Shown: positions 32,998 through 56,024 of the stretch, in pieces | Numbering within the stretch: the first letter of the stretch is position 1 | Layout of the letters: each line of letters opens with the position of its first letter | IMG/VR virus record: IMGVR_UViG_3300045988_135919 | Location: 1-56,024 of that record | DNA length: 56,024 nt | Source of the DNA: a virus | Direction: 5' to 3' (one strand) | Notes under the pieces: model-generated | What the model saw: the letters and a program-made list of their open reading frames with translations, nothing else | What the model was told of the DNA's origin: nothing | Database searches by the model: none | Translations under genes and position numbers: made by a program

Positions 32998-33183
32998 ATG
33001 GCTCTCTTTATTAAATTCAATTTCTTTTTTGCAGTTTTTACACCACAAATATATCTTTTTATATTCGCTGGTTTTGTCCACTCGAAACATTTTTTTATTA
33101 CAATGTGGACATACCATATATACTTTTTCATCTTGTATTATATCATATTTTTGTTCGTTTGTCAAATTATCAACCCCCATCAA
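32986..33183 (-). CDS. Mu Com-like zinc-ribbon protein
   Basis: 65 aa. CPHCNKKMF...(17)...WCKNCKKEIEF, a CxxC...CxxC spacing like the Com translational regulator family. Confidence 0.55.
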   Translation of the reverse strand: MMGVDNLTNEQKYDIIQDEKVYMVCPHCNKKMFRVDKTSEYKKIYLWCKNCKKEIEFNKESHEPM

Positions 33184-34925
33184 AAACCTAGTTTCGTTAT
33201 TGAGAACTTACTACTTGCCACACCAACGCCTCCTGGGGATAAAATATTGATTATCATAGAAGCAACACTATCAATACAATCATCCTTTTGAGTTTTCTGA
33301 ACACTACCTTCTGCTTCCGACCATTCGTAAATGTGCCTCATAAACAAATTGTATTGTGTGTTATTTTCACGGCATGATTCGGCTTTAAAATAGATTCTAA
33401 CAGTCATTTCGTTAATCGCAATACCTTTTATCTCACTTTGACAAGAAAGTATCCTATCACGCTTAGATTTAGTTGTAGGAGCATTATGCGTTGTAATATT
33501 TATTCTATAATTGAGTTTTCTAGCGTCATTTGATAAAAGTTCGCCATATTCTAACCCACCGTTGTTTTTTTCAATACCAAGTTTTGTTACCTTATGCTTG
33601 ATTAATTTTTCTAACAATCTTTTTCTCGATATATCTATATCAACATTATTTTCGTAATAAACATCTTCTATATAAATATCGTTTCCATATTGATACCCAA
33701 TAGGTGTTGAAAAATAATCTTTGCCACCAAATGACGGATCTGCAAATGCAATAATCCTATCGGGCTCTTGCTCTGGTAAATCAGTATAAAATGATAAATG
33801 GTCCTTGGTGAAAGGATGTCCTGTTCTCTCCATTGGCTCTCCCAAATATTTAGCACGAAATGTTATAGGATCTTCTGTTTTTTGAAGTTCTTGATAATAT
33901 TCTTTCGTAAATCCCTTACCATAATCATACAAAAAGTTTGATTCCCCTTTTTCATCATAACAAGGTATGTTTATAATTCTAACACGAGGATTATGCGTAC
34001 CATCGTATATTCTAATTAATCTACCGATAGGATCATTTATTGACCATCTTGTTGCAATGTGTATCTCTGGGCAACGATGATATTCTCCATCTTTTCCTTT
34101 ACGCATTACAGTTCTATCCTGAATTGTACTTGTATATGTTGCAAATAATTTGTCAAGCCTAGCTGGATTTTCGGCAGTTTCAATATCTTTGATTAAGTCA
34201 TCACAATAAAGTATATTACTTGCCTCTGCAATACCAGTTGTACCACCATCGATACTTTTGAACATTAGTGTATGAAAACGTTTATCCGTATTCAAATCTA
34301 TCCATGAATATTCCGCAGATTTATTCTTTATATTAATATTTGGAAATATTTCACTAAAACGATATTCTTCGCTTGTCATTAAATTCAAAACTTCATTATA
34401 AAATGATTGTGTTAATGCTGTACTATGACCATTACCGAGTATAGAACGGTCTGGATAAAGTGCAGCCATAAAAGATAAAAAGAATATACCTGTGGTACTC
34501 TTCGCAGTACGAGGTGGCATTGACACAAACAAGAAGTCTAATTTACCATCCGCAACATCTTGCATCGCTTGCAATAATCCATGTTTCTCGAGTATTTTTC
34601 TACGAGGTAAGAAGAATTGTTTTTCGATAGGTCTATTCCATTCCAAAGCGATACAATATGCCCTAAAGTCACCACACCTAGCCCTAGTATCATAACTAGC
34701 AAGTAAATATTCTTGTTCTTTATTATAACCAAGTTTGCTATTGAGTACAAAACTTTCAATCTCTTTACAAATTTTAATAGCATTTTCTTCTTGCTCGGCA
34801 CTTTCGTAATTAATTCTCATCAAATTTAAAAGGTCTAAATAAGCGGCACTATTCCTGTCTTTTACTTGGGAGTATAAATCTTCTAACTCCTCAATATTTT
34901 TCAATATTCGGTTTTTATTGTTCAT
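33180..34925 (-). CDS. terL: Terminase large subunit
   Basis: 581 aa. Walker A-like MPPRTAKST, Walker B LYCDDLI. C-terminal nuclease region AFADPSFGGKDYF...D. Confidence 0.9.
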   Translation of the reverse strand: MNNKNRILKNIEELEDLYSQVKDRNSAAYLDLLNLMRINYESAEQEENAIKICKEIESFVLNSKLGYNKEQEYLLASYDTRARCGDFRAYCIALEWNRPIEKQFFLPRRKILEKHGLLQAMQDVADGKLDFLFVSMPPRTAKSTTGIFFLSFMAALYPDRSILGNGHSTALTQSFYNEVLNLMTSEEYRFSEIFPNINIKNKSAEYSWIDLNTDKRFHTLMFKSIDGGTTGIAEASNILYCDDLIKDIETAENPARLDKLFATYTSTIQDRTVMRKGKDGEYHRCPEIHIATRWSINDPIGRLIRIYDGTHNPRVRIINIPCYDEKGESNFLYDYGKGFTKEYYQELQKTEDPITFRAKYLGEPMERTGHPFTKDHLSFYTDLPEQEPDRIIAFADPSFGGKDYFSTPIGYQYGNDIYIEDVYYENNVDIDISRKRLLEKLIKHKVTKLGIEKNNGGLEYGELLSNDARKLNYRINITTHNAPTTKSKRDRILSCQSEIKGIAINEMTVRIYFKAESCRENNTQYNLFMRHIYEWSEAEGSVQKTQKDDCIDSVASMIINILSPGGVGVASSKFSITKLGF

Positions 34926-34929
34926 AATA

Positions 34930-35178
34930 TCACCTATTATATTTATACCATTCGTTTCTTAAAATGTGCCTAAGGTTTTCCAATTCCGTATCATCAACGG
35001 CATTTAAAAATTCCCAAATTAAATCACATGTTTTTTCCCTTAATAATCTTCTTGAGTATACATAATATTTATACACATATTTCTCGTTCAAGGTTAATTT
35101 TAAATAATTCTCTTTAATAAAAGAGGAATTATCATAAAAAGAAGAATAGTCATAAAACATAAGTTGTGGGTTAATCAT
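34930..35178 (-). CDS. Hypothetical protein upstream of terL
   Basis: 82 aa from ATG 35178 (GGAG RBS). The longer track ORF runs into promoter 35231-35259. Confidence 0.5.
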   Translation of the reverse strand: MINPQLMFYDYSSFYDNSSFIKENYLKLTLNEKYVYKYYVYSRRLLREKTCDLIWEFLNAVDDTELENLRHILRNEWYKYNR

Positions 35179-35230
35179 AAAAATCAACTCCAATGTTATC
35201 AAAAATATGTTCGTATATCTTTCTAATTGC

Positions 35231-35259
35231 ATTATATTATAAATAAACAGATTTGTCAA
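35231..35259 (-). promoter_or_regulatory. Consensus sigmaA promoter (TTGACA-17-TATAAT) for the terL/structural operon
   Basis: -35 at 35254-59, -10 at 35231-36. Lies immediately after terminator 35261-35288. Confidence 0.75.
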
Positions 35260-35260
35260 T

Positions 35261-35288
35261 TAAAAAAAGCACGGGGTAAACGTGCTTT
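35261..35288 (-). terminator. Rho-independent terminator of the ncRNA-tRNA unit
   Basis: Minus strand reads AGCACG-tttaccc-CGTGCT followed by T7. Confidence 0.75.
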
Positions 35289-35379
35289 GCTTTGTGGAGT
35301 ATATACCACAAAAAACCGATGGAACAGTAGCACTAGGCTACTAAACTCATTATACCATATGGTATAAAAACTGTCAAAT

Positions 35380-35455
35380 TGGAGGTAACGGTGGGATTCG
35401 AACCCACGATAACGGAGTTGCAGTCCGTTTTCTTGAACCACTTGAGTACGTTACC
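35380..35455 (-). tRNA. tRNA-Cys (GCA), CCA encoded
   Basis: GGTAACG/CGTTACC acceptor stem. ACGGA-CTGCAAC-TCCGT anticodon arm. GTGGG-TTCGAAT-CCCAC T arm. U73 discriminator (a CysRS identity element). The D stem is weak. Confidence 0.85.
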
Positions 35456-36432
35456 ATAAAACAAAAATGTGTACCAATACCTACAAATTAGAAAGGAGGT
35501 GATTTGGTACACGCACAAAATAAAATGAAAAACATCGAATTGGGAGTAGGTCCACAACGCCCTACATATAAATTACACATAATGACTAACGAACATTCAT
35601 ATTACATAAAAAAGGAAGCCTTGTAATAAATATTTAAATTATGTGTATTACTGGAAGTGGATAGTCCCCCTAAGGTCTGACCTTTCACAGTTTTCCCAAT
35701 AATTTTGTTCTTTAAAAAAATTATAAGCGGTGCTTCTCGCACTAATATAATATGAACATTTATTATTCAGCCACTAGGAAGTGTTGGTCCTGAGAGGGAG
35801 CTACCGTCTTTCCTCCAACACCTTTTGATCCTACGTAAGAGTGATACTTGCAACTTTCACACGAATTAGACTTTAATACTTTCATTCGCTAACCAGGCGA
35901 TAATTAAATATGTAGATTTGTGCTACTCATACGAAGGACTAATCTTATACCTTTCTCACGAAAGTTCAACTACATACTCACTTATTTTGATATTACAACT
36001 CCTCTTGGGTTATCAAGCCCATAAGTTCTATTGCCTTATTCCGAACATGGATGCAAACCACCCATGCCATTTCAGATTGTGTAAGCGACTAGCCTTCTGC
36101 TTTACAAACTCTCATACCATACCACCATTATCTCTTTTCATGCTTTGCATGTTCCATTCTCCAGTTTCCCTTCAAATCACTCAATCCATCTATCGTATCC
36201 GACAAACTAATAAGTACAAGATAATGTCCATACTGTGTTTCGCACAGTCTTTCATATGGTTCGCTTATAAACTTCTTAAAAAATAAAATTGTGATGCACT
36301 AAGATATTGTTATTTGAGAGAATAATCAAGAAAGTTGTTATCCAACTTAGGATTATTCCGGATGAATATTTTTTTACGAGTGTGATACTCCTATCACTAC
36401 AATTTCTCTTTTTAAGAAATATTATCTCAATG
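35456..36432 (-). ncRNA. ORF-free, hairpin-dense ~1-kb RNA upstream of the tRNA (large structured ncRNA candidate, ROOL/GOLLD-like context)
   Basis: No minus-strand ORF >=60 aa. Own promoter and terminator. G+C-richer core around 35640-36290. Many local helices, e.g. CUUUC-GUGA-GAAAG at 35951-64. Confidence 0.5.
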
Positions 36433-36439
36433 CAATTTA

Positions 36440-36468
36440 ATAATACCATATCAGACATTAAAAGTCAA
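36440..36468 (-). promoter_or_regulatory. Promoter (TTGACT-17-TGgTATTAT) driving the ncRNA-tRNA unit
   Basis: -35 at 36463-68, -10 at 36440-45. Lies 3 nt after the mazG stop. Confidence 0.65.
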
Positions 36469-36470
36469 TA

Positions 36471-36779
36471 CTATTTTTCATAATATTTTGATTTTATTCT
36501 GTCATGTGTTCTTTCCAACTTATAATCCATGAAAGGATCTAATTCTTCCTTTTTAATATCATATTTCGCAATAAATTCCGTTAAAAGAACCAACATATCG
36601 CCCATTTCCTCAATAACATGCTCTCTACACATATTCTCAAAAGCACTACCGCCTAAATGAGATGACATTACATCTTCATAATTATCAACCGCTTCTAAAA
36701 ATTCAAAACATTCTTCATTTAACTTCTTCATTTGATTACGAACACCGAAGTATTCTATTATGTCAAGGTACGCTTTCAT
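36471..36779 (-). CDS. mazG: MazG-like nucleotide pyrophosphohydrolase
   Basis: 102 aa. KLNEECFEFLEAV...VIEEMGDMLVLLTEF (EExxE / ExxD helices). Confidence 0.75.
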   Translation of the reverse strand: MKAYLDIIEYFGVRNQMKKLNEECFEFLEAVDNYEDVMSSHLGGSAFENMCREHVIEEMGDMLVLLTEFIAKYDIKKEELDPFMDYKLERTHDRIKSKYYEK

Positions 36780-38226: not shown

Positions 38227-38271
38227 ATAACCACCAACTTACTTATATCTTACTCATATTCTACTTAAATT

Positions 38272-38412
38272 TTATCTATTTTTACCGAATAATGATGCCA
38301 CCATCGCAAGTACAACCATACAAAGTAAAATAAATACGAGTATTAAAAACGCTGTTAAGCATAAATGTAGCGTCTTCTCCTCAAAAGCTGTTAACACAAA
38401 TTTTAAAATCAT
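38272..38412 (-). CDS. Possible 46-aa membrane peptide
   Basis: MILKFVLTAFEEKTLHLCLTAFLILVFILLCMVVLAMVASLFGKNR. The longer track ORF crosses a terminator and promoter. Weak RBS. Confidence 0.3.
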   Translation of the reverse strand: MILKFVLTAFEEKTLHLCLTAFLILVFILLCMVVLAMVASLFGKNR

Positions 38413-38436
38413 TCTATCACTCTCTTTCTTTACATA

Positions 38437-38465
38437 ATTATATAATAAAAACGAATATAAAGCAA
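38437..38465 (-). promoter_or_regulatory. Promoter (TTGCTT-17-TATAAT) heading the HNH/mazG transcription unit
   Basis: -35 at 38460-65, -10 at 38437-42. Confidence 0.6.
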
Positions 38466-38472
38466 GTTGTGT

Positions 38473-38523
38473 AAAAAAAAAGAACCCTAGGTGAAGTAAT
38501 ATTTCAAAGGGGGACACCTAGGG
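38473..38523 (-). terminator. Strong rho-independent terminator
   Basis: Minus strand reads CCCTAGGTG-(21 nt)-CACCTAGGG followed by TTCTTTTTTTTT. Confidence 0.7.
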
Positions 38524-38666
38524 CGAGGATTTAAGGTTTCACTAATATATGATTATGCACTAAACAAATGTGAACCATCAACATTGTAGAAAAAATTGCT
38601 CACGTAGCACTCTCTACTGCACTACATCCTAATTATATCAAATAAAATAAAAAATGTCAACCAATA

Positions 38667-38801
38667 TCAAATAAATATAACACACAACACCACAAATAGT
38701 AACAATAAAAGAAATGATAAACATGATAAAAACCAACTAACCATAACTTTCTCATTTTTTATAGTATTTATAAATTCTTTAAAGATTCTAACAATTTCCA
38801 T
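38667..38801 (-). CDS. Possible 44-aa tail-anchored membrane peptide
   Basis: MEIVRIFKEFINTIKNEKVMVSWFLSCLSFLLLLLFVVLCVIFI. AGGTGG RBS. Below the track cutoff. Confidence 0.35.
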   Translation of the reverse strand: MEIVRIFKEFINTIKNEKVMVSWFLSCLSFLLLLLFVVLCVIFI

Positions 38802-38840
38802 ACGTCCACCTACTTTATAATGTTATTATATCATATAAAT

Positions 38841-38868
38841 ATAAAAAGAAAAAGAGCATTCGCTCTTT
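38841..38868. terminator. Hairpin AAAGAGC-attc-GCTCTTT (terminator on minus, partial on plus)
   Basis: 7-bp stem. Minus-strand read is followed by TTCTTTTTAT. Confidence 0.5.
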
Positions 38869-39022
38869 TCTAGAAGTTTTTAGTATTTTAGAACTTTTTG
38901 CTATATTAAGCTAATGCTATGGATATTCACGCAACAGATTGTACCAAATCCATTGCTAATTAAATTATATCAAATCACCCATCCCATGTCAACATTTTTT
39001 CGCAAACTTTTAAAAAAGTTTT

Positions 39023-39051
39023 TACAAACTTTATACAAACTTTATACAAAC
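39023..39051. repeat. Tandem 11-mer TACAAACTTTA x2.6
   Basis: Read directly. Lies 65-90 nt upstream of the -35 at 39115. Confidence 0.8.
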
Positions 39052-39114
39052 CCATCACAAATGTAAAGATTGTGTAAAATATGAAAAAATCAATACAAAT
39101 ATGTTACTAAAACA

Positions 39115-39144
39115 TTGACATGGATGATGTTAATATGATATTAT
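39115..39144 (+). promoter_or_regulatory. Promoter (TTGACA-18-TGaTATTAT)
   Basis: Shares ATGT(T)ACTAAAACAyTTGAC...TAATATGATA with the promoter at 40196. Confidence 0.6.
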
Positions 39145-39709
39145 CAAGTTGTGATTGAGGAAAAAGTCAAAATTATTCAAAGAGTCTAAAAATATTAAAG
39201 AAAATCATACAAACCTTAAAATTATACACTTATTCGTATCAATGAATGATTACAATTAAACCTTTGTAGGTCCAAAAAGACCTCAATCATGTAGTAATAT
39301 CTTATAATCCATACTATTTAATTATCTATGTTTAATGACCGGTAAAATTAAGCAACATTAAACAATATTATGAAAGAAGAGGTGAAAAACCACTTCCTAT
39401 CTATCTAATATATACAAACAGTATATATCTATCTATAGTTAGATTAGTATGGATTATATTTGTTGTTTTTTACAACATACGATAATAGATATTAGCATGG
39501 AGATGTTTATGTTATATAATGTACAGTGTGCATTGCACATCGCACATCGTGCAAAAAGTATTACCAATGATATTAAATAAAGAAATCATAGTTACCATCA
39601 CCTTTATATGCAACTATGCAACATTTAAAGAATAAGAAAAAATCTCTAAATATAAACGTTTCCATGGTACTATCTATCGTAGTACCAAATTGTCTTCTAA
39701 TTTAAATCG

Positions 39710-39739
39710 CCCATTCTCACAATGAGAGTGGGATTTTTA
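39710..39739 (+). terminator. Rho-independent terminator
   Basis: CCCATTCTCA-caa-TGAGAGTGGG (10 bp, one G-U) followed by ATTTTTA. Confidence 0.75.
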
Positions 39740-39768
39740 TTGACATTAGTGCTAGGTTTTGGTATAAT
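39740..39768 (+). promoter_or_regulatory. Promoter (TTGACA-17-TGgTATAAT)
   Basis: -35 at 39740-45, -10 at 39763-68. Abuts the preceding terminator. Confidence 0.7.
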
Positions 39769-39774
39769 GTATTT

Positions 39775-39910
39775 GAGGTTCTTATTTCTTTGTTTCAAAT
39801 TTATATCATCCTCTAAACGATAATTTGTTAGACAAATAAGAATCTTAAGCTAAATATTATTTTTTTATTTTTTTTCAATGGAAGAGAGATGAGTTTCTCT
39901 TCTTTTTTTA
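39775..39910 (+). ncRNA. Candidate ~135-nt sRNA (promoter to terminator, no ORF)
   Basis: Long stem 39775-39787/39834-39846, a U-rich spacer, and terminator GAAGAGA-gatgagtt-TCTCTTC+T7 (39880-39910). Confidence 0.5.
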
Positions 39911-40137
39911 TTACTTAGGAATGATTGAGCTATTGCTTTTTATGTAAATAGAATAGTTATGGTTTTAGGGATGATGATTGTGAGAATTTAAGTATATGGA
40001 GGATATTAGAATTAGGTAAGGAGTTTTGAAAATTAAATTTTGCTCGAGCACCTAATTCAAAGCCTGGGGGTATGGGGTGCGTATAGGGGGAACCCCCTAA
40101 GCCCTATGGTTTTCGACTGGGTAAAATATAGGGATAA

Positions 40138-40151
40138 CGAACAGTTGTTCG
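40138..40151. promoter_or_regulatory. Perfect Cheo (Gram-positive LexA/SOS) box CGAACagttGTTCG
   Basis: Matches CGAAC-N4-GTTCG exactly. Lies 44 bp upstream of the -35 at 40196. Confidence 0.5.
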
Positions 40152-40195
40152 TCATTAAAAACATTAAAAAATTATAATAAAATGTACTAAAACAC

Positions 40196-40224
40196 TTGAC
40201 TTATAAAGTCTAATATGATACAAT
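40196..40224 (+). promoter_or_regulatory. Promoter (TTGACT-17-TGaTACAAT)
   Basis: -35 at 40196-201, -10 at 40219-24. Confidence 0.65.
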
Positions 40225-40254
40225 ATATATGTAAATAAAGAAAGGAGCAATGTT

Positions 40255-40488
40255 ATGATACTAAGTAGAAAACAGGTCATAGAGCTATCAAAAACATTAG
40301 ACGCTAAGGACATAACAAACAGTAATAGTGAAGATGTAACAAGATTATATATAACGGAAAGAGGTTTTACAACAATTGCATATTCATTTGGTACTTATGG
40401 CCTTAACTCTTGCTTATGTAAAGGAAATACAAGCAATAATATGTTCGTAATAACAGCTAGAAACACCAACTTATTTATTATTATGTAA
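40255..40488 (+). CDS. Hypothetical protein
   Basis: 77 aa. AAAGGAG RBS. First gene after promoter 40196. Confidence 0.6.
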   Translation: MILSRKQVIELSKTLDAKDITNSNSEDVTRLYITERGFTTIAYSFGTYGLNSCLCKGNTSNNMFVITARNTNLFIIM

Positions 40489-40499
40489 AGGTGTCTATA

Positions 40500-40652
40500 A
40501 TGAAAAATAAGCTATTAAAAATTAAATGGGACTTAATAACCCTACTTCAAACTAACAAACAAGCTTTTGAAGAAACAAAAGACTTGTATATCGCTAATAA
40601 TATAGAAGAACTAAACAAAATAATAAATAAACTTGATAACTTGCTTAATTAA
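40500..40652 (+). CDS. Possible 50-aa helical protein
   Basis: AAGGTG RBS 6 nt upstream. Below the track cutoff. Confidence 0.4.
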   Translation: MKNKLLKIKWDLITLLQTNKQAFEETKDLYIANNIEELNKIINKLDNLLN

Positions 40653-40733
40653 CAACTTTTGTGTAATCTAGCTTATACACGTTCCAAGCCGTGATGAGAA
40701 ATAGAGAGGACGCAAAAAAGAAAGGGTTATAAT

Positions 40734-40913
40734 ATGTACAAAATAATATTATATCAAGTAATTATTACCCCTAAAACGAGGGGTAAAGTCATAGACAAAA
40801 AAACTATTGCAACATATAGACATATTAACAAAAGAGACTTATCTACTAAGTCAATAGAAATCAAGAAAAAGTTTTCAACATGGAATACTTGCCTTGAATT
40901 TATAAAGGAGTGA
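40734..40913 (+). CDS. Possible 59-aa basic protein
   Basis: Weak RBS (AAAGGG). Below the track cutoff. Confidence 0.3.
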   Translation: MYKIILYQVIITPKTRGKVIDKKTIATYRHINKRDLSTKSIEIKKKFSTWNTCLEFIKE

Positions 40914-40918
40914 TTAAA

Positions 40919-41047
40919 ATGATAACATGGTTTATAATAAAATTGTTAAAACATTCAATAAAAAGCATGCGATTTATGTTCAAGCTTATGATATGTATAA
41001 TTCTAAGCCCTTTTTGGTTTATAATGGGAGTAATAAAAACGAAGTAA
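40919..41047 (+). CDS. Possible 42-aa hydrophobic peptide
   Basis: MITWFIIKLLKHSIKSMRFMFKLMICIILSPFWFIMGVIKTK. AAGGAG lies 8 nt upstream. Competes with track ORF 40927-41151. Confidence 0.35.
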   Translation: MITWFIIKLLKHSIKSMRFMFKLMICIILSPFWFIMGVIKTK

Positions 41048-41151
41048 TAAACGTGAATATTACTCTTTTAATCGTGCCTATAATATCCGTTATAGGTAGG
41101 GTTAAAAGAATAATAAAGGGTTGTTTGTTCCTTGAAAATTTATGTTATTAA
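40927..41151 (+). CDS. Alternative-frame 74-aa ORF (weak)
   Basis: No RBS of its own. Overlaps the better-signalled 40919 peptide. Confidence 0.2.
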   Translation: MVYNKIVKTFNKKHAIYVQAYDMYNSKPFLVYNGSNKNEVINVNITLLIVPIISVIGRVKRIIKGCLFLENLCY

Positions 41152-41311
41152 TATACGTTATAAACGTATAAAACCCTCATTTTTCAACACTTTATAAACA
41201 CGAACAGGAAGTGTAAACCGAACAAGTGTTTGAGTGTAAAGCGAATAGATGTTTGTGTGTTTTAGGAGACAATCTTTAGTGTATCTTAAAATCGAAGTTG
41301 ATAAAAGTTGC

Positions 41312-41348
41312 TTTCGGTGAGATTTTTTTAAGAAAGCAATTTATAACT
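41312..41348 (+). promoter_or_regulatory. Bipartite motif copy A: TTTCGGTG-N21-TTATAACT
   Basis: Read directly. Left flank of the 46-bp palindrome. Confidence 0.6.
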
Positions 41349-41358
41349 CTAACTATTT

Positions 41359-41404
41359 TTTAATATTTTATATATTATTATATAATAATATATAAAATAT
41401 TAAA
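41359..41404. repeat. 46-bp perfect all-A/T palindrome
   Basis: Checked base by base. The centre lies between 41381 and 41382. Confidence 0.95.
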
Positions 41405-41461
41405 CGGTTGATGAACGTTCGTTTCGTGATGAACTTTTTGGAACGATTTTTAAAAAGTTCG

Positions 41462-41498
41462 TTTCGGTGGGAATTTTTGAAGAGTTGAGATTATAACT
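41462..41498 (+). promoter_or_regulatory. Bipartite motif copy B: TTTCGGTG-N21-TTATAACT
   Basis: Read directly. Right flank of the palindrome, same orientation as copy A. Confidence 0.6.
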
Positions 41499-41654
41499 TG
41501 AAGTGTTTTTTTAAAATCAATTCTAATGGCTTAAATTTTAGTTTTAAGGTATGGTAAAGGTGTAAATAGTATGAGAGTACTTAAAATGTCTTTTGTTCGT
41601 TAGAGGGTATTTAAAATGAGTTTGAGAGGGTTGTTGGTTTTTTGTTAGGTGGAA

Positions 41655-41688
41655 AATGAAAAAAATGTAGGTTATTCATCTACATTTT
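41655..41688. terminator. Bidirectional terminator at the terS 3' end
   Basis: AATGTAG-(9 nt)-CTACATT with an A-run upstream and a T-run downstream. The terS stop codon lies in the loop. Confidence 0.65.
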
Positions 41689-42319
41689 CTATGATTTTTT
41701 TAGGGGTGTTCGCTATTTGTTCGCGTAAGGCGATAAGAGATTGGTTTGTGTCAAGCCCTTTATTTTCAAGGTATGACGTGGCGGACGGCTTAATTTCTAC
41801 CACGGTTGACCCGTTTCTTAAATGGAAGTAATTAGCCCCCATAAAAGCGTACGTTCGTGCGTCTAATTTATCATTAACAACATTCTCTTCCAAAATGTAC
41901 TGACAATAGTCCATTGCTTTAGCTAAAACAAAAGCCGTAGGACATATTTCCGGATGAGCTGAATAGTAAATTAACTCATCTCTTCTAATTCCCAAATAAC
42001 TACAGAGTGAACCGATGTGAGGTGTCATATTATAATCATTACAAGCCTTTAAATATTCAATAACCTCATTTCTAGCATATTCAACATTTGTGAATACTGG
42101 TAATAGGTCATTACTATCTCTCTCTGGTAGTCTGTTGAAACTTCTATCAAGCAACATCATATTAAAATTCTTGACGTTAGGCTGGTTCATATACTCTTGA
42201 AGTCTATTACTTCTATCTTGTTTCTTCATAAGTGCCTTGATAGTATCTAATTCTTGCTTAAGTTCATCATCCTTAATCGTTAAATCATTTTGAGCTTTAA
42301 TTGTAGAACGTTCTTTCAT
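41672..42319 (-). CDS. terS: Terminase small subunit-like protein
   Basis: 215 aa from ATG 42319 (GGAGGTG RBS). NEVIEYLKACNDYNMTPHIGSLCSYLGIRRDELIYY...YAFMGANYFHLRN matches the common TerS pattern (..EYF..C...PT..GLA..LGIS..TL..Y...IF.LKN.FGW). Confidence 0.6.
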   Translation of the reverse strand: MKERSTIKAQNDLTIKDDELKQELDTIKALMKKQDRSNRLQEYMNQPNVKNFNMMLLDRSFNRLPERDSNDLLPVFTNVEYARNEVIEYLKACNDYNMTPHIGSLCSYLGIRRDELIYYSAHPEICPTAFVLAKAMDYCQYILEENVVNDKLDARTYAFMGANYFHLRNGSTVVEIKPSATSYLENKGLDTNQSLIALREQIANTPKKIIENVDE

Positions 42320-42355
42320 ATAATGCACCTCCAAACAGTTATTTATCACATCTAC

Positions 42356-42384
42356 ATTATATCATAAACTCTAACTTTTTACAA
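42356..42384 (-). promoter_or_regulatory. Promoter for terS (TTGTAA-17-TGaTATAAT)
   Basis: -35 at 42379-84, -10 at 42356-61. Confidence 0.55.
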
Positions 42385-42453
42385 TATTTTAAAAAATGTT
42401 CGTGTTTATGGTTAACAATCATAAAATAAAATTGCAAAATAAAATAAAAAATT

Positions 42454-42536
42454 AGCTAGTATACAAAAAATTAAGAGCTAGTATACAAAATGAGGAGCTA
42501 GTTAACAAAAAATGGGTAAAATCAGAGCTAGTATAC
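42454..42536 (+). repeat. Iteron array A: AGCTAGTATAC x4 (one variant AGCTAGTTAAC)
   Basis: Copies start at 42454, 42476, 42496 and 42526. Confidence 0.9.
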
Positions 42537-42591
42537 ACTCTAATATACAAAAAAACCCTTGTAAAATAAGGAAAAAACACATTTTGCATAT

Positions 42592-42825
42592 GTATACTAG
42601 CTATTGCATACTATATATATAATAAATAAATTATACAAAATCATAACCTAAAAATCTTTAAAATTTTTTATTTCCTCGTATTATTATCATTTTTCTGGTA
42701 TACAATTATTATTATTTTTATATAAACCCTTATAATATATAGTAAAAAGTGTATACTAGCTATATACTAGCTATATGAAAATGTATACTAAACCGTATAC
42801 TAGCTATTAAAAATGTATACTAGCT
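42592..42825 (-). repeat. Iteron array B: the same 11-mer inverted (GTATACTAGCT) x5 plus a partial copy
   Basis: Copies at 42592, 42751, 42762 (first base differs), 42795 and 42815. Partial copy at 42783. Confidence 0.9.
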
Positions 42826-42842
42826 ATGCTATTTTATTAACA

Positions 42843-42884
42843 AATATGACTATATTTTAAAAAAATATGACTATATTTTAAAAA
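42843..42884. repeat. Tandem 21-mer AATATGACTATATTTTAAAAA x2 (+ partial third)
   Basis: Read directly. Confidence 0.9.
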
Positions 42885-43064
42885 AATATTGAATATTGCC
42901 TTGTAGCCAACAAATATTTTTTAAGTAAGATACTAACAAAATGCTAACAAAAAAATTAAGAAATAAAAAATAAAAATTTTAATAAAAAAATTATAAAAAT
43001 GGTAAAAATTTATAAAAAAATACAAAAAATTTTATATATTTTTAATAAAAATATAAAAAAATGC

Positions 43065-43093
43065 TTGACATTTTTAGTCTTATAGTGTATTAT
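43065..43093 (+). promoter_or_regulatory. Early promoter (TTGACA-17-TATTAT) preceded by ~130 nt of phased A-tracts
   Basis: -35 at 43065-70, -10 at 43088-93. Shares CTTATAGTGTATTATATTA with the promoter at 53036. Confidence 0.7.
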
Positions 43094-43201
43094 ATTAGTC
43101 AAGAAAGGAAGAAAATGTATACAAAATTGTATTAAAATTATATCAATTTTGGTTGATTGGTGTTAAAAACACGAACATTTTAGAAAGGAAAGTGAATAGA
43201 T

Positions 43202-43417
43202 ATGAGAACGAAAATTAAGCATACACTTTTAAAAAGAAGTAAAAAATATAATTATAAAGTATATGAAGAACAACGATACGATAATATGAGTGGTTATGAA
43301 TATTCTTATTTGATTGAGGAATATGACACTGGGTATGTTATCATGTCGGGGTTGATTAATTGGCATCAAGTTGAAGAAATATTGGAAAAATTAAAAAAAT
43401 TAAAGGAGAGTGAGTGA
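43202..43417 (+). CDS. Hypothetical early protein
   Basis: 71 aa. First ORF of the long co-oriented early block. Confidence 0.55.
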   Translation: MRTKIKHTLLKRSKKYNYKVYEEQRYDNMSGYEYSYLIEEYDTGYVIMSGLINWHQVEEILEKLKKLKESE

Positions 43418-55222: not shown

Positions 55223-56015
55223 ATGGGATACATTAGTAAAGTTATATATCAACCGTGGATTAAAAATATTTCCAGTTGTTGCAAATGGTAAAACACCAGC
55301 CATACAAATGTGGCAAAAAGATTGTTCTAGTGACAGTCTGCAAGTTCTTTATTGGCTTGAAAATAATAAAAATGGTAATTGGGGATTACCAGCAACGCCA
55401 AATAATCTGTTTATCATTGACCTAGATGTCCATGATATAGATAAAAATGGTATAAAATTTTTTGAGAAATTATGTTGTGACATAGATTTAAAAGGTGAAC
55501 AATTTGATACCCTAATTCAAACAACGCCGAGCGGTGGAAAACATTTGATATATAAGAGCGACGAAGATCTGAGTGCGATAGCAAATGGTTCAAATGTATT
55601 CAAAGACTATCCGGGAATTGATTTTCGTACTGATGGATATATTGTTGTAGAACCATCTATCATTAATAACAAAGAATACAGGTTTTTTAACAATATAGAA
55701 CCACAAGCGATGCCACAAAAATTAAAAGATTATATTTTAAACAATGCTGAACGAAAGGGTAAAGAAAAAAAACCCTACGTTAAACCTAAAGAAACAGTTT
55801 TAACTGGGAATAGAGATGACCAATTGTTTGCATACATTACAAATCTATACTATAAAACAAGATTAGATATTGATGAAGTTTCGATATTAGCTCACAATTT
55901 TAACAAAACAATGCTAGATGATCCTTTACCTGATAAAGATGTTGAGTATAAAGTTAGAAAAGCCTTTCAAAAAGATAGAGCTAAATGTTTATTTATCATA
56001 TTACCAGATGAATAA
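55206..56015 (+). CDS. Bifunctional primase-polymerase (AEP/PrimPol N-terminal domain) protein
   Basis: 269 aa. IFPVVANGKTPAIQMWQ...LFIIDLDVHD...TPSGGKHLIY...GIDFRTDGYIVVEPS. Confidence 0.7.
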   Translation: MISQNKWDTLVKLYINRGLKIFPVVANGKTPAIQMWQKDCSSDSLQVLYWLENNKNGNWGLPATPNNLFIIDLDVHDIDKNGIKFFEKLCCDIDLKGEQFDTLIQTTPSGGKHLIYKSDEDLSAIANGSNVFKDYPGIDFRTDGYIVVEPSIINNKEYRFFNNIEPQAMPQKLKDYILNNAERKGKEKKPYVKPKETVLTGNRDDQLFAYITNLYYKTRLDIDEVSILAHNFNKTMLDDPLPDKDVEYKVRKAFQKDRAKCLFIILPDE

Positions 56016-56024
56016 AAAAAAAAT
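55950..56024. repeat. Second copy of the 75-bp terminal overlap
   Basis: Identical to 1-75. Confidence 0.95.

Follow-up and report, generated by a model that had tools for sequence, protein, structure and literature searches.

A full-length ROOL RNA and a tRNA-Cys in the gene-free stretch upstream of the packaging genes of a 56-kb phage genome

The DNA analysed here, referred to throughout as the window, is the 56,024-nt IMG/VR virus record IMGVR_UViG_3300045988_135919, taken at its full length. Upstream of its packaging genes, a gene-free stretch of about 1 kb encodes a full-length ROOL RNA (Rfam family RF03087), followed by a tRNA-Cys. The ROOL RNA comprises 573 nt at positions 35711-36283 of the minus strand, on which the other features of the locus described below also lie unless stated otherwise, and is identified by a covariance-model match and by covariation. 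It is a member of the ROOL family, its fold and its synteny are conserved among related phages, and the stretch lacks coding potential. Very probably, the locus is a stand-alone non-coding unit whose ROOL product assembles as an octameric cage with a trans-acting role during infection.

In a whole-window scan against Rfam 15, taking in all 4227 families, the ROOL model matched with 200 bits against a gathering score of 99.1 (E 1.2e-43), over model positions 1-574 of 574 and without truncation; a covariance-model E-value of this size rules out a chance match. Exactly two matches, ROOL and tRNA, reached the gathering thresholds in that scan. A scan of the short stretch 35150-36520 reproduced the ROOL match and, at a permissive E<=10, returned only chance-level matches beyond these two. 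The original prediction, made by reading the sequence, had suggested a ROOL- or GOLLD-class RNA: the ROOL part of this suggestion is borne out by the Infernal match, and the GOLLD part is not, as GOLLD gave no match in the window at its gathering score and none in 35150-36520 at E<=10. Likewise, OLE, raiA, HEARO and phi29 pRNA had no Rfam match, with their presence in the library assumed and not checked per family. A new class of RNA, which the original prediction had kept as an alternative, is rejected by the full-length match at twice the gathering score; the window RNA is an ordinary ROOL, a further example of a known family. Its length is close to the family mean of 581 nt (Weinberg et al. 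2017, PMC5737381), and it contains, at ROOL positions 367-419, a block that varies in length and cannot be aligned; this corresponds to the variable linker (35865-35917), which is the shortest in the clade. With the Rfam structure mapped onto the window sequence, 130 of 147 consensus pairs are canonical. Four helices picked out by eye in the original prediction each coincide with a ROOL consensus helix; these are the long-range helix of GGUGUUGG with CCAACAC (35815-22 with 35781-87), ACUGUG-CGAAA-CACAGU (36232-36248), GUGC-GAGAA-GCAC (35730-35742), and the GNRA hairpin discussed below. Its remark that the core is G+C-richer than the flanks also stands, with values of 0.37 in the ROOL, 0.28 in the leader preceding it and 0.30 for the whole window.

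Conservation of the fold was examined in ten ROOLs of the clade, which are related sequences with a mean column identity of 65%. These were aligned by sequence alone (MAFFT, not structure-fitted), and the Rfam structure was projected through the window row. Standard pairs were formed in 83.4% of cells, as against 39-44% when partners were slid by 1-3 columns; changes on both sides were found for 88 of the 147 pairs (slid, 21-36), and the covariation score was 0.528 (slid, 0.09-0.13). None of 500 shuffles reached any of the observed covariation measures. Pairing reaches 97% or more in the outer helix, in the terminal hairpin and in both the L2 and the GNRA hairpin, and 83% in P18; several compensatory pairs occur in each of these five. 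The covariation among homologs that the original prediction had named as a check is therefore strong.

Eight copies of a ROOL RNA assemble, in the absence of protein, into a hollow cage of D4 symmetry with a width of about 28 nm (Kretsch et al. 2025, PMC12286853, PDB 9MDS). An octameric cage was also shown by Ling et al. 2025, as summarised in PMC12515178, and protein-free octamers are known for env-120 and two bacterial ROOLs (PMC12286853, and the summary in PMC12515178). We placed the bridge residues of env-120 by sequence context and compared them with the clade. In bridge B4 of env-120, G307-A310 of L8 pair with U332-C335 of J6/8 (PMC12286853), a pairing that corresponds to the "pseudoknot" of the original ROOL description. 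By env-120 equivalence, the 5' partner of this J6/8-L8 kissing loop in the window is the L8 loop UUGAUAAC (36009-36016) and the 3' partner is the J6/8 segment UAUCAAAAU (35984-35992). The resulting pairing, UUGAUA:UAUCAA, has A:U where most relatives have G:C, and two relatives, L001 and L035 (L numbers denote loci of related phages, the clade relatives being drawn from IMG/VR), show a U:A to C:G swap at the adjacent pair. B4 is paired in 76.7% of cells versus 31-51% when slid; with six pairs only, between 4 and 13 of 500 shuffles match the observed score or percentage, so that this signal is weak when taken alone. The GNRA-tetraloop hairpin CUUUC-GUGA-GAAAG (35951-35964) is the positional equivalent of the env-120 hairpin that contributes the A-minor bridge B2 through its loop G364-A367 (PMC12286853); a GNRA loop (GUGA, GAAA or GAGA) is kept in 10/10 clade ROOLs, and the stem is 98% paired with all five pairs changing on both sides. 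Finally, the P18/L18 hairpin GACGG-UAGCU-CCCUC (35794-35808) presents a loop GC that corresponds to the symmetric inter-shell kissing contact B6, formed in env-120 by G565:C566 (PMC12286853). This GC dinucleotide is invariant among the ten clade ROOLs, the loop reading UAGCU in the window, UCGCU in the relatives and UUGCU in env-120, with A for the preceding C in the window alone. At the level of sequence, the octamer contacts B4, L18 GC and the GNRA hairpin are thus kept in the window ROOL, and together with homology these retained contacts make it well founded to infer that it would assemble into a cage.

From these features the following course of events can be proposed. A host sigma-70-type RNA polymerase would start at a promoter (P1) downstream of a MazG-like gene and transcribe a 150-nt leader and the 573-nt ROOL; read-through of a hairpin and U-tract (35457-35512) would add the tRNA-Cys, and transcription would stop at the terminator at 35266-35288. 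Enzymes of tRNA processing would then split the products, with RNase P acting at the tRNA 5' end and, in relatives whose upstream tRNA stops 5-8 nt short of ROOL, with processing at the 3' end of that tRNA. As judged from the homologous RNAs of known structure, the ROOL would fold into a flat monomer, eight copies of which would assemble without protein into a hollow D4 nanocage, held together through the J6/8-L8 kissing loop, the L18 GC and the GNRA/A-minor contacts. The variable linker would lie inside the cage, where it is disordered in the solved structure (PMC12286853).

The sequence of the transcription unit is consistent with this scheme. The MazG-like gene (36471-36779; PHROG nucleoside triphosphate pyrophosphohydrolase, 1.5e-13) is followed by P1 (36440-36468), which reads TTGACT-17-TATTAT with a TG upstream of the -10 box and matches the consensus at 10/12 positions. 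This promoter had been recognised in the original prediction, which placed it 3 nt after the mazG stop; its -35 box begins 2 nt after. The P1 hexamers are identical in L002 and L003, with 83-85% identity over about 60 nt comprising the promoter and the first ~40 nt, and comparable promoters occur in most relatives upstream of ROOL or of a tRNA preceding it. Between P1 and the tRNA-Cys lie about 980 nt that hold no credible gene. The first part of these is the 5' leader (36284-36433), predicted to form a closed four-way junction in which an 11-bp closing stem at the predicted transcription start encloses three hairpins, and which ends 12 nt before ROOL. Its minimum free energy of -36.8 kcal/mol (z -5.67) was equalled by none of 200 shuffles. 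The leader has no Rfam match at E<=10. A degenerate tRNA was considered and rejected, as the leader has no ARAGORN call, no Rfam match and no similarity to the tRNAs of relatives; a protective or processing role at the 5' end would be a guess.

Downstream of ROOL, a 255-nt spacer (35456-35710) without a homolog in relatives has weak structure overall (z -1.95), and no promoter-like site was found in it. It ends in a stable hairpin (35468-35512; -16.3 kcal/mol, z -4.72) followed by AUUUUUGUUUU (35457-35467), 2 nt before the tRNA. The terminator scan had passed over this hairpin, whose loop exceeds 8 nt. It is a candidate for a leaky intrinsic terminator or for a processing or stability element, and most P1 transcripts may end before the tRNA. 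Because a terminator-like hairpin precedes the tRNA and the spacer holds no promoter-like site, the tRNA is probably made by read-through of the leaky terminator. Co-transcription of ROOL and tRNA-Cys, which the original prediction had assumed, is plausible in view of the promoter-less spacer and of a gap of 32 nt in one relative. The tRNA-Cys itself (35380-35455; anticodon GCA, CCA encoded, U discriminator) was called both by ARAGORN and by the Rfam tRNA model (60.2 bits), in agreement with the original prediction. A second promoter, P2 (35349-35377), starts 3 nt after the tRNA CCA and is a perfect TTGACA-17-TATAAT with TGn (12/12); it overlaps the palindrome ATACCATATGGTAT, the positional counterpart of the post-tRNA terminator hairpin of L003. 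From P2, a predicted RNA of about 85 nt (35262-35342; -24.8 kcal/mol, z -4.53) would form three hairpins, the last of which is the terminator. This RNA has no homolog in relatives and no Rfam match, and is a candidate small RNA or, alternatively, the outcome of a former terminator hairpin turned promoter. The intrinsic terminator of the unit (35259-35288, hairpin 35266-35288) has an 8-bp stem, a 7-nt loop and a U7 run (-9.1 kcal/mol, z -5.2), and directly after it lies a third promoter, P3 (35231-35259), a 12/12 match that would serve an 82-amino-acid open reading frame (ORF) and terL. The clean terminator and the consensus promoter for terL reported in the original prediction were therefore both recovered; the pre-tRNA hairpin, P2 and a 16-nt copy of the 16S rRNA tail, described below, had escaped it. 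A promoter before the unit and a terminator and promoter after it are found in the window and in relatives alike.

The tRNA neighbourhood of ROOL is shared across the clade. A tRNA-Cys lies downstream of ROOL in 10 of 13 relatives, at a gap of 32 to ~255 nt. Since the tRNA-Cys follows ROOL, RNase P cleavage would free the 3' side of ROOL; the order ROOL-tRNA also fits the published tolerance of 3' fusions, as, according to the account of Ling et al. in PMC12515178, the cage tolerates the fusion of a tRNA precursor to the 3' end of ROOL and displays it on the exterior. Five relatives have, at the place of the window's leader, a tRNA whose end is 5-8 nt away from the ROOL 5' end (L009 3694-3777, His; L010 3365-3447, Met; L011 467-550, Met; L012 3434-3515, Met; L035 2281-2362, untyped). 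This arrangement suggests that tRNA 3' processing may define the ROOL 5' end in these five phages. The pre-terminase slot of relatives holds between 1 and 19 tRNAs, of which the window keeps tRNA-Cys only. Large tRNA arrays were observed in L009, L010, L012, L022 and L028, with up to 19 tRNAs in L010 (137-1899, 3365-4435).

The same slot, upstream of the 82-amino-acid ORF and terL, is occupied by ROOL in 13/13 relatives with a TerL at least 59% identical and with upstream DNA available. For four of these, cmscan runs over 22-55 kb at a time returned no ROOL, whether at the gathering threshold or at E<=1. Upon closer inspection, nhmmer found ROOL in all four (L002 2947-3565; L003 3756-4376; L008 3769-4380; L032 3768-4378), and the L003 copy, submitted as a 751-nt stretch, scored 155.5 bits. 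The suspicion that these phages hold another, perhaps new, large RNA in the slot is accordingly rejected, the miss being an artefact of the Infernal speed filter; such false negatives on long scans matter for ROOL surveys. Relatives with a TerL 50-57% identical keep the slot, which there holds tRNA arrays only and no ROOL. Because these phages hold tRNAs without ROOL, the slot is a tRNA and non-coding RNA island at the module boundary upstream of terS/terL, and not a part of the packaging machinery. The original prediction had placed the unit inside the packaging module; more aptly, it lies in a boundary island just upstream of terS/terL, which is tRNA-only in distant relatives.

As tRNAs constantly accompany ROOL, a role in translation or tRNA supply is favoured over one in packaging. 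Speculatively, ROOL might be a trans-acting infection accessory tied to tRNA supply or translation, for example by sequestering or displaying RNA or ribosomal cargo; our best guess is that it is neither part of the packaging motor nor a cis-regulator of terS/terL.

Several points weigh against a cage-forming, trans-acting ROOL expressed as a unit with its tRNA. In the RNA itself, 17 of the 147 consensus pairs depart from canonical pairing, and the fit to the model is poor around P7, which in ROOL is reported as not always conserved (PMC12286853). For contact B1, between the L2 loop and the linker flank, inspection yields a possible 4-bp CGAA:UUCG in the window, one base of which also belongs to a consensus helix, and several relatives have no equivalent; moreover, the homologs on which cage formation is modelled share only the family consensus with the window ROOL. 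With regard to the unit, the leader is unconserved in relatives past the first ~40 nt, the spacer is not conserved, and the upstream tRNA of five relatives is missing. The pre-tRNA hairpin and U-tract may make ROOL and the tRNA largely separate products, and the promoters, transcript ends and processing sites are all predictions from sequence. Lastly, the literature searched states no function for ROOL.

A more specific link to translation was considered on account of the spacer. The loop and upper stem of the pre-tRNA hairpin contain AUCACCUCCUUUCUAA (35488-35503), which matches the Firmicute 16S rRNA 3' tail (the anti-Shine-Dalgarno region) at 16/16 positions. The only perfect GAAAGGAGGTGAT (13-mer) of the window lies here, other near-matches being ordinary ribosome-binding sites with two mismatches. 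On the sense strand of ROOL flanks, the motif occurs over at least 9 nt in 10/14 clade loci versus 0.22 expected from dinucleotide shuffles, often directly after a hairpin, and on the antisense strand in 0/14. A general ROOL companion was rejected: the motif is enriched in the clade, but among 68 more distant ROOL loci its 9-nt form occurs in one related group only. Also rejected was a Shine-Dalgarno of small antisense genes. The opposite strand does read as a perfect Shine-Dalgarno, with a TTG 4 nt after GGAGG as its sole start codon, but start codons and ORFs are not consistent, and the 40-amino-acid ORF behind it in the window has no homolog and no family. The motif may be a clade-specific habit of terminator tails, or it may be functional. 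As ROOL constantly lies between tRNAs where the late genes begin, and as copies of the 16S tail recur in its flanks, the ROOL unit of this clade could be a device aimed at translation and not a passive cage, which we regard as very unlikely. If this were true and the tails stayed attached, eight 16S-like tails, or tRNA precursors, would be displayed outside each cage, where the tails could capture Shine-Dalgarno mRNAs or act as decoys for factors of the 16S 3' end.

A packaging role similar to that of pRNA, in which a multimeric RNA docks on the portal or terminase, is suggested by the fixed position of ROOL directly upstream of the 82-amino-acid ORF and terL in the window and 13 close relatives, and by the homo-oligomerisation of ROOL (PMC12286853). 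However, the sister phages with a TerL 50-57% identical keep the slot without ROOL, and packaging consequently does not need it. The unit also has its own promoter and terminator, with a further promoter between it and terS, and no packaging-RNA family matched at E<=10. A closed ROOL cage differs from the pRNA ring in that its shape does not suit the portal. At about 28 nm, the cage is wider than the maximal dimension of the ribosome (~25 nm) (PMC12286853, and the summary in PMC12515178), and published ROOLs occur outside prophages as well, and generally near tRNA islands (PMC12286853, PMC5737381). On balance, a function in packaging is highly unlikely.

The non-canonical pairs, the linker shorter than any other in the clade, the unique flanks and the loss of the upstream tRNA might instead mark the ROOL as a relic in decay that has lost its function and travels with the tRNA. 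Against such decay stands the match to the full-length model at double the family threshold, together with window-specific compensatory changes that keep pairs intact, including the intermolecular B4. Furthermore, the near-consensus promoter is conserved in L002 and L003, and ROOL is retained in every close relative, leaving loss of function highly improbable.

A function of the stretch in cis, as a regulator or an extended, structured 5' leader of terS/terL, would agree with its location upstream on the same strand, and base pairing between a ribosome-binding site and the anti-Shine-Dalgarno-like sequence of the spacer is conceivable. Such a function is exceedingly unlikely, as the terminator at 35266-35288 and the 12/12 promoter at 35259-35231 intervene, in the same order in relatives, the terS ribosome-binding site is a short GGAG and not an extended Shine-Dalgarno, and the ROOL family acts elsewhere as a discrete, abundant RNA (PMC12286853).

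The original prediction had stated that no minus-strand ORF of at least 60 amino acids is present, which is incorrect in a mechanical sense: ORFs of 60 amino acids (36276-36458, starting inside the promoter) and of 74 and 61 amino acids (both overlapping the tRNA) exist, as does a plus-strand ORF of 122 amino acids antisense to ROOL (35918-36286). No ORF of the region reaches a Pfam gathering score, and two plus-strand ORFs are also without a PHROG match. Among ROOL homologs, stop-free stretches range over 39-71 codons in sense and 57-148 in antisense, so that no frame is conserved on either strand, consistent with the check proposed in the original prediction, and substitutions track base-pairing and not codon structure. 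As genes, the 122-amino-acid antisense ORF and the small minus-strand ORFs were thus rejected, without a family match and with unconserved frames. Apart from the mere existence of ORFs of 60-122 amino acids, all of this evidence runs against a protein product, which is almost certainly not what the region encodes.

With regard to the phage as a whole, the window carries a 75-nt terminal direct repeat (1-75 and 55950-56024), and an identical TerL is encoded on the ENA metagenome scaffold OBRE15-1_SAMN03283289 scaffold_105 (56,004 bp). Given the repeat and this scaffold of similar size, the window most likely represents the complete genome of a tailed phage, assembled as a circle of ~55.95 kb. 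The sample label points to a metagenome of the human gut. Its phage genes include an SPP1-type portal, an E-type major capsid protein, helicase, VapE and Prim-Pol replication genes, and an M23 peptidase. Downstream of the ROOL unit, terL (33180-34925) was assigned through PHROG 38 (3.5e-48), and the 82-amino-acid ORF in the terS position (34930-35178), conserved in all relatives and without a Pfam or PHROG match, is possibly an unrecognised small terminase subunit. The closest deposited TerL, of Clostridium phage Maintenon, is only 39% identical, and the phage therefore has no annotated close relative; blastn with the 1.3-kb region likewise returned no match among 50,697 deposited phages. A scan of genomic contigs with TerL peptides found nothing, and one with a TerL alignment found two loci, a phage-like contig without upstream DNA, binned in a "Bacilli bacterium" metagenome-assembled genome, and a 39% relative. 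Among viral contigs, a loose ROOL DNA pattern gave 120 loci with no ROOL, and a tighter pattern gave 89 ROOL-bearing contigs. Also observed was an ORF-poor, AT-rich stretch (38230-43400; G+C 0.23-0.30) in which the coding strand switches, with tandem-repeat arrays at 42446-43060 that include TATACTAGCTA units and an exact 21-nt repeat. This stretch is probably a replication origin or early regulatory region.

Compared with known systems, the window RNA shares with the ROOL family the full-length model match, a multi-junction covarying fold with a variable internal linker, the non-coding character, the kept J6/8-L8, L18 GC and GNRA elements, and a phage-borne, tRNA-adjacent setting; no family-defining feature differs. 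ROOL has been known since 2017, is represented in Rfam and has solved structures, and its phage and tRNA context here is typical and will not surprise a specialist. ROOL is among the few natural RNAs for which a protein-free cage exceeding the ribosome in size is known; the locus leaves the picture of this family unchanged and adds to it a clean natural example in a phage of ~56 kb. What it contributes is the tRNA-ROOL-tRNA-Cys-terS/terL synteny across 14 phages, the ROOL-less sisters, the conservation of cage contacts, the 16S-tail motif and the warning on the Infernal filter. Particular to the clade is the fixed location of ROOL directly upstream of terS/terL in 14 related phages; particular to the window ROOL are its own promoter and 150-nt leader in place of an upstream tRNA, the A for C in L18, and its minimal linker, and to the window copy or its clade the sequence in the 3' spacer resembling the 16S 3' tail. 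GOLLD is similar in its phage and tRNA-island setting and in being a large self-assembling RNA cage, there a 14-mer, but is unrelated to the window RNA in sequence and fold. The pRNA of the phi29 family, ~120-174 nt long and forming a ring on the portal, is likewise a phage-encoded homo-oligomer, and the window gene adjoins packaging genes; the window RNA differs in that related phages package without it. Finally, the unit resembles phage tRNA islands and morons, being a promoter-gene-terminator cassette between MazG-like or early-middle genes and terS/terL, and differs from these in that its main cargo is a 573-nt structured RNA and not a protein or tRNAs alone. Such a compact ROOL unit, running from promoter to terminator and accompanied by ROOL-less sister phages, is well suited to comparative and genetic tests of ROOL function.

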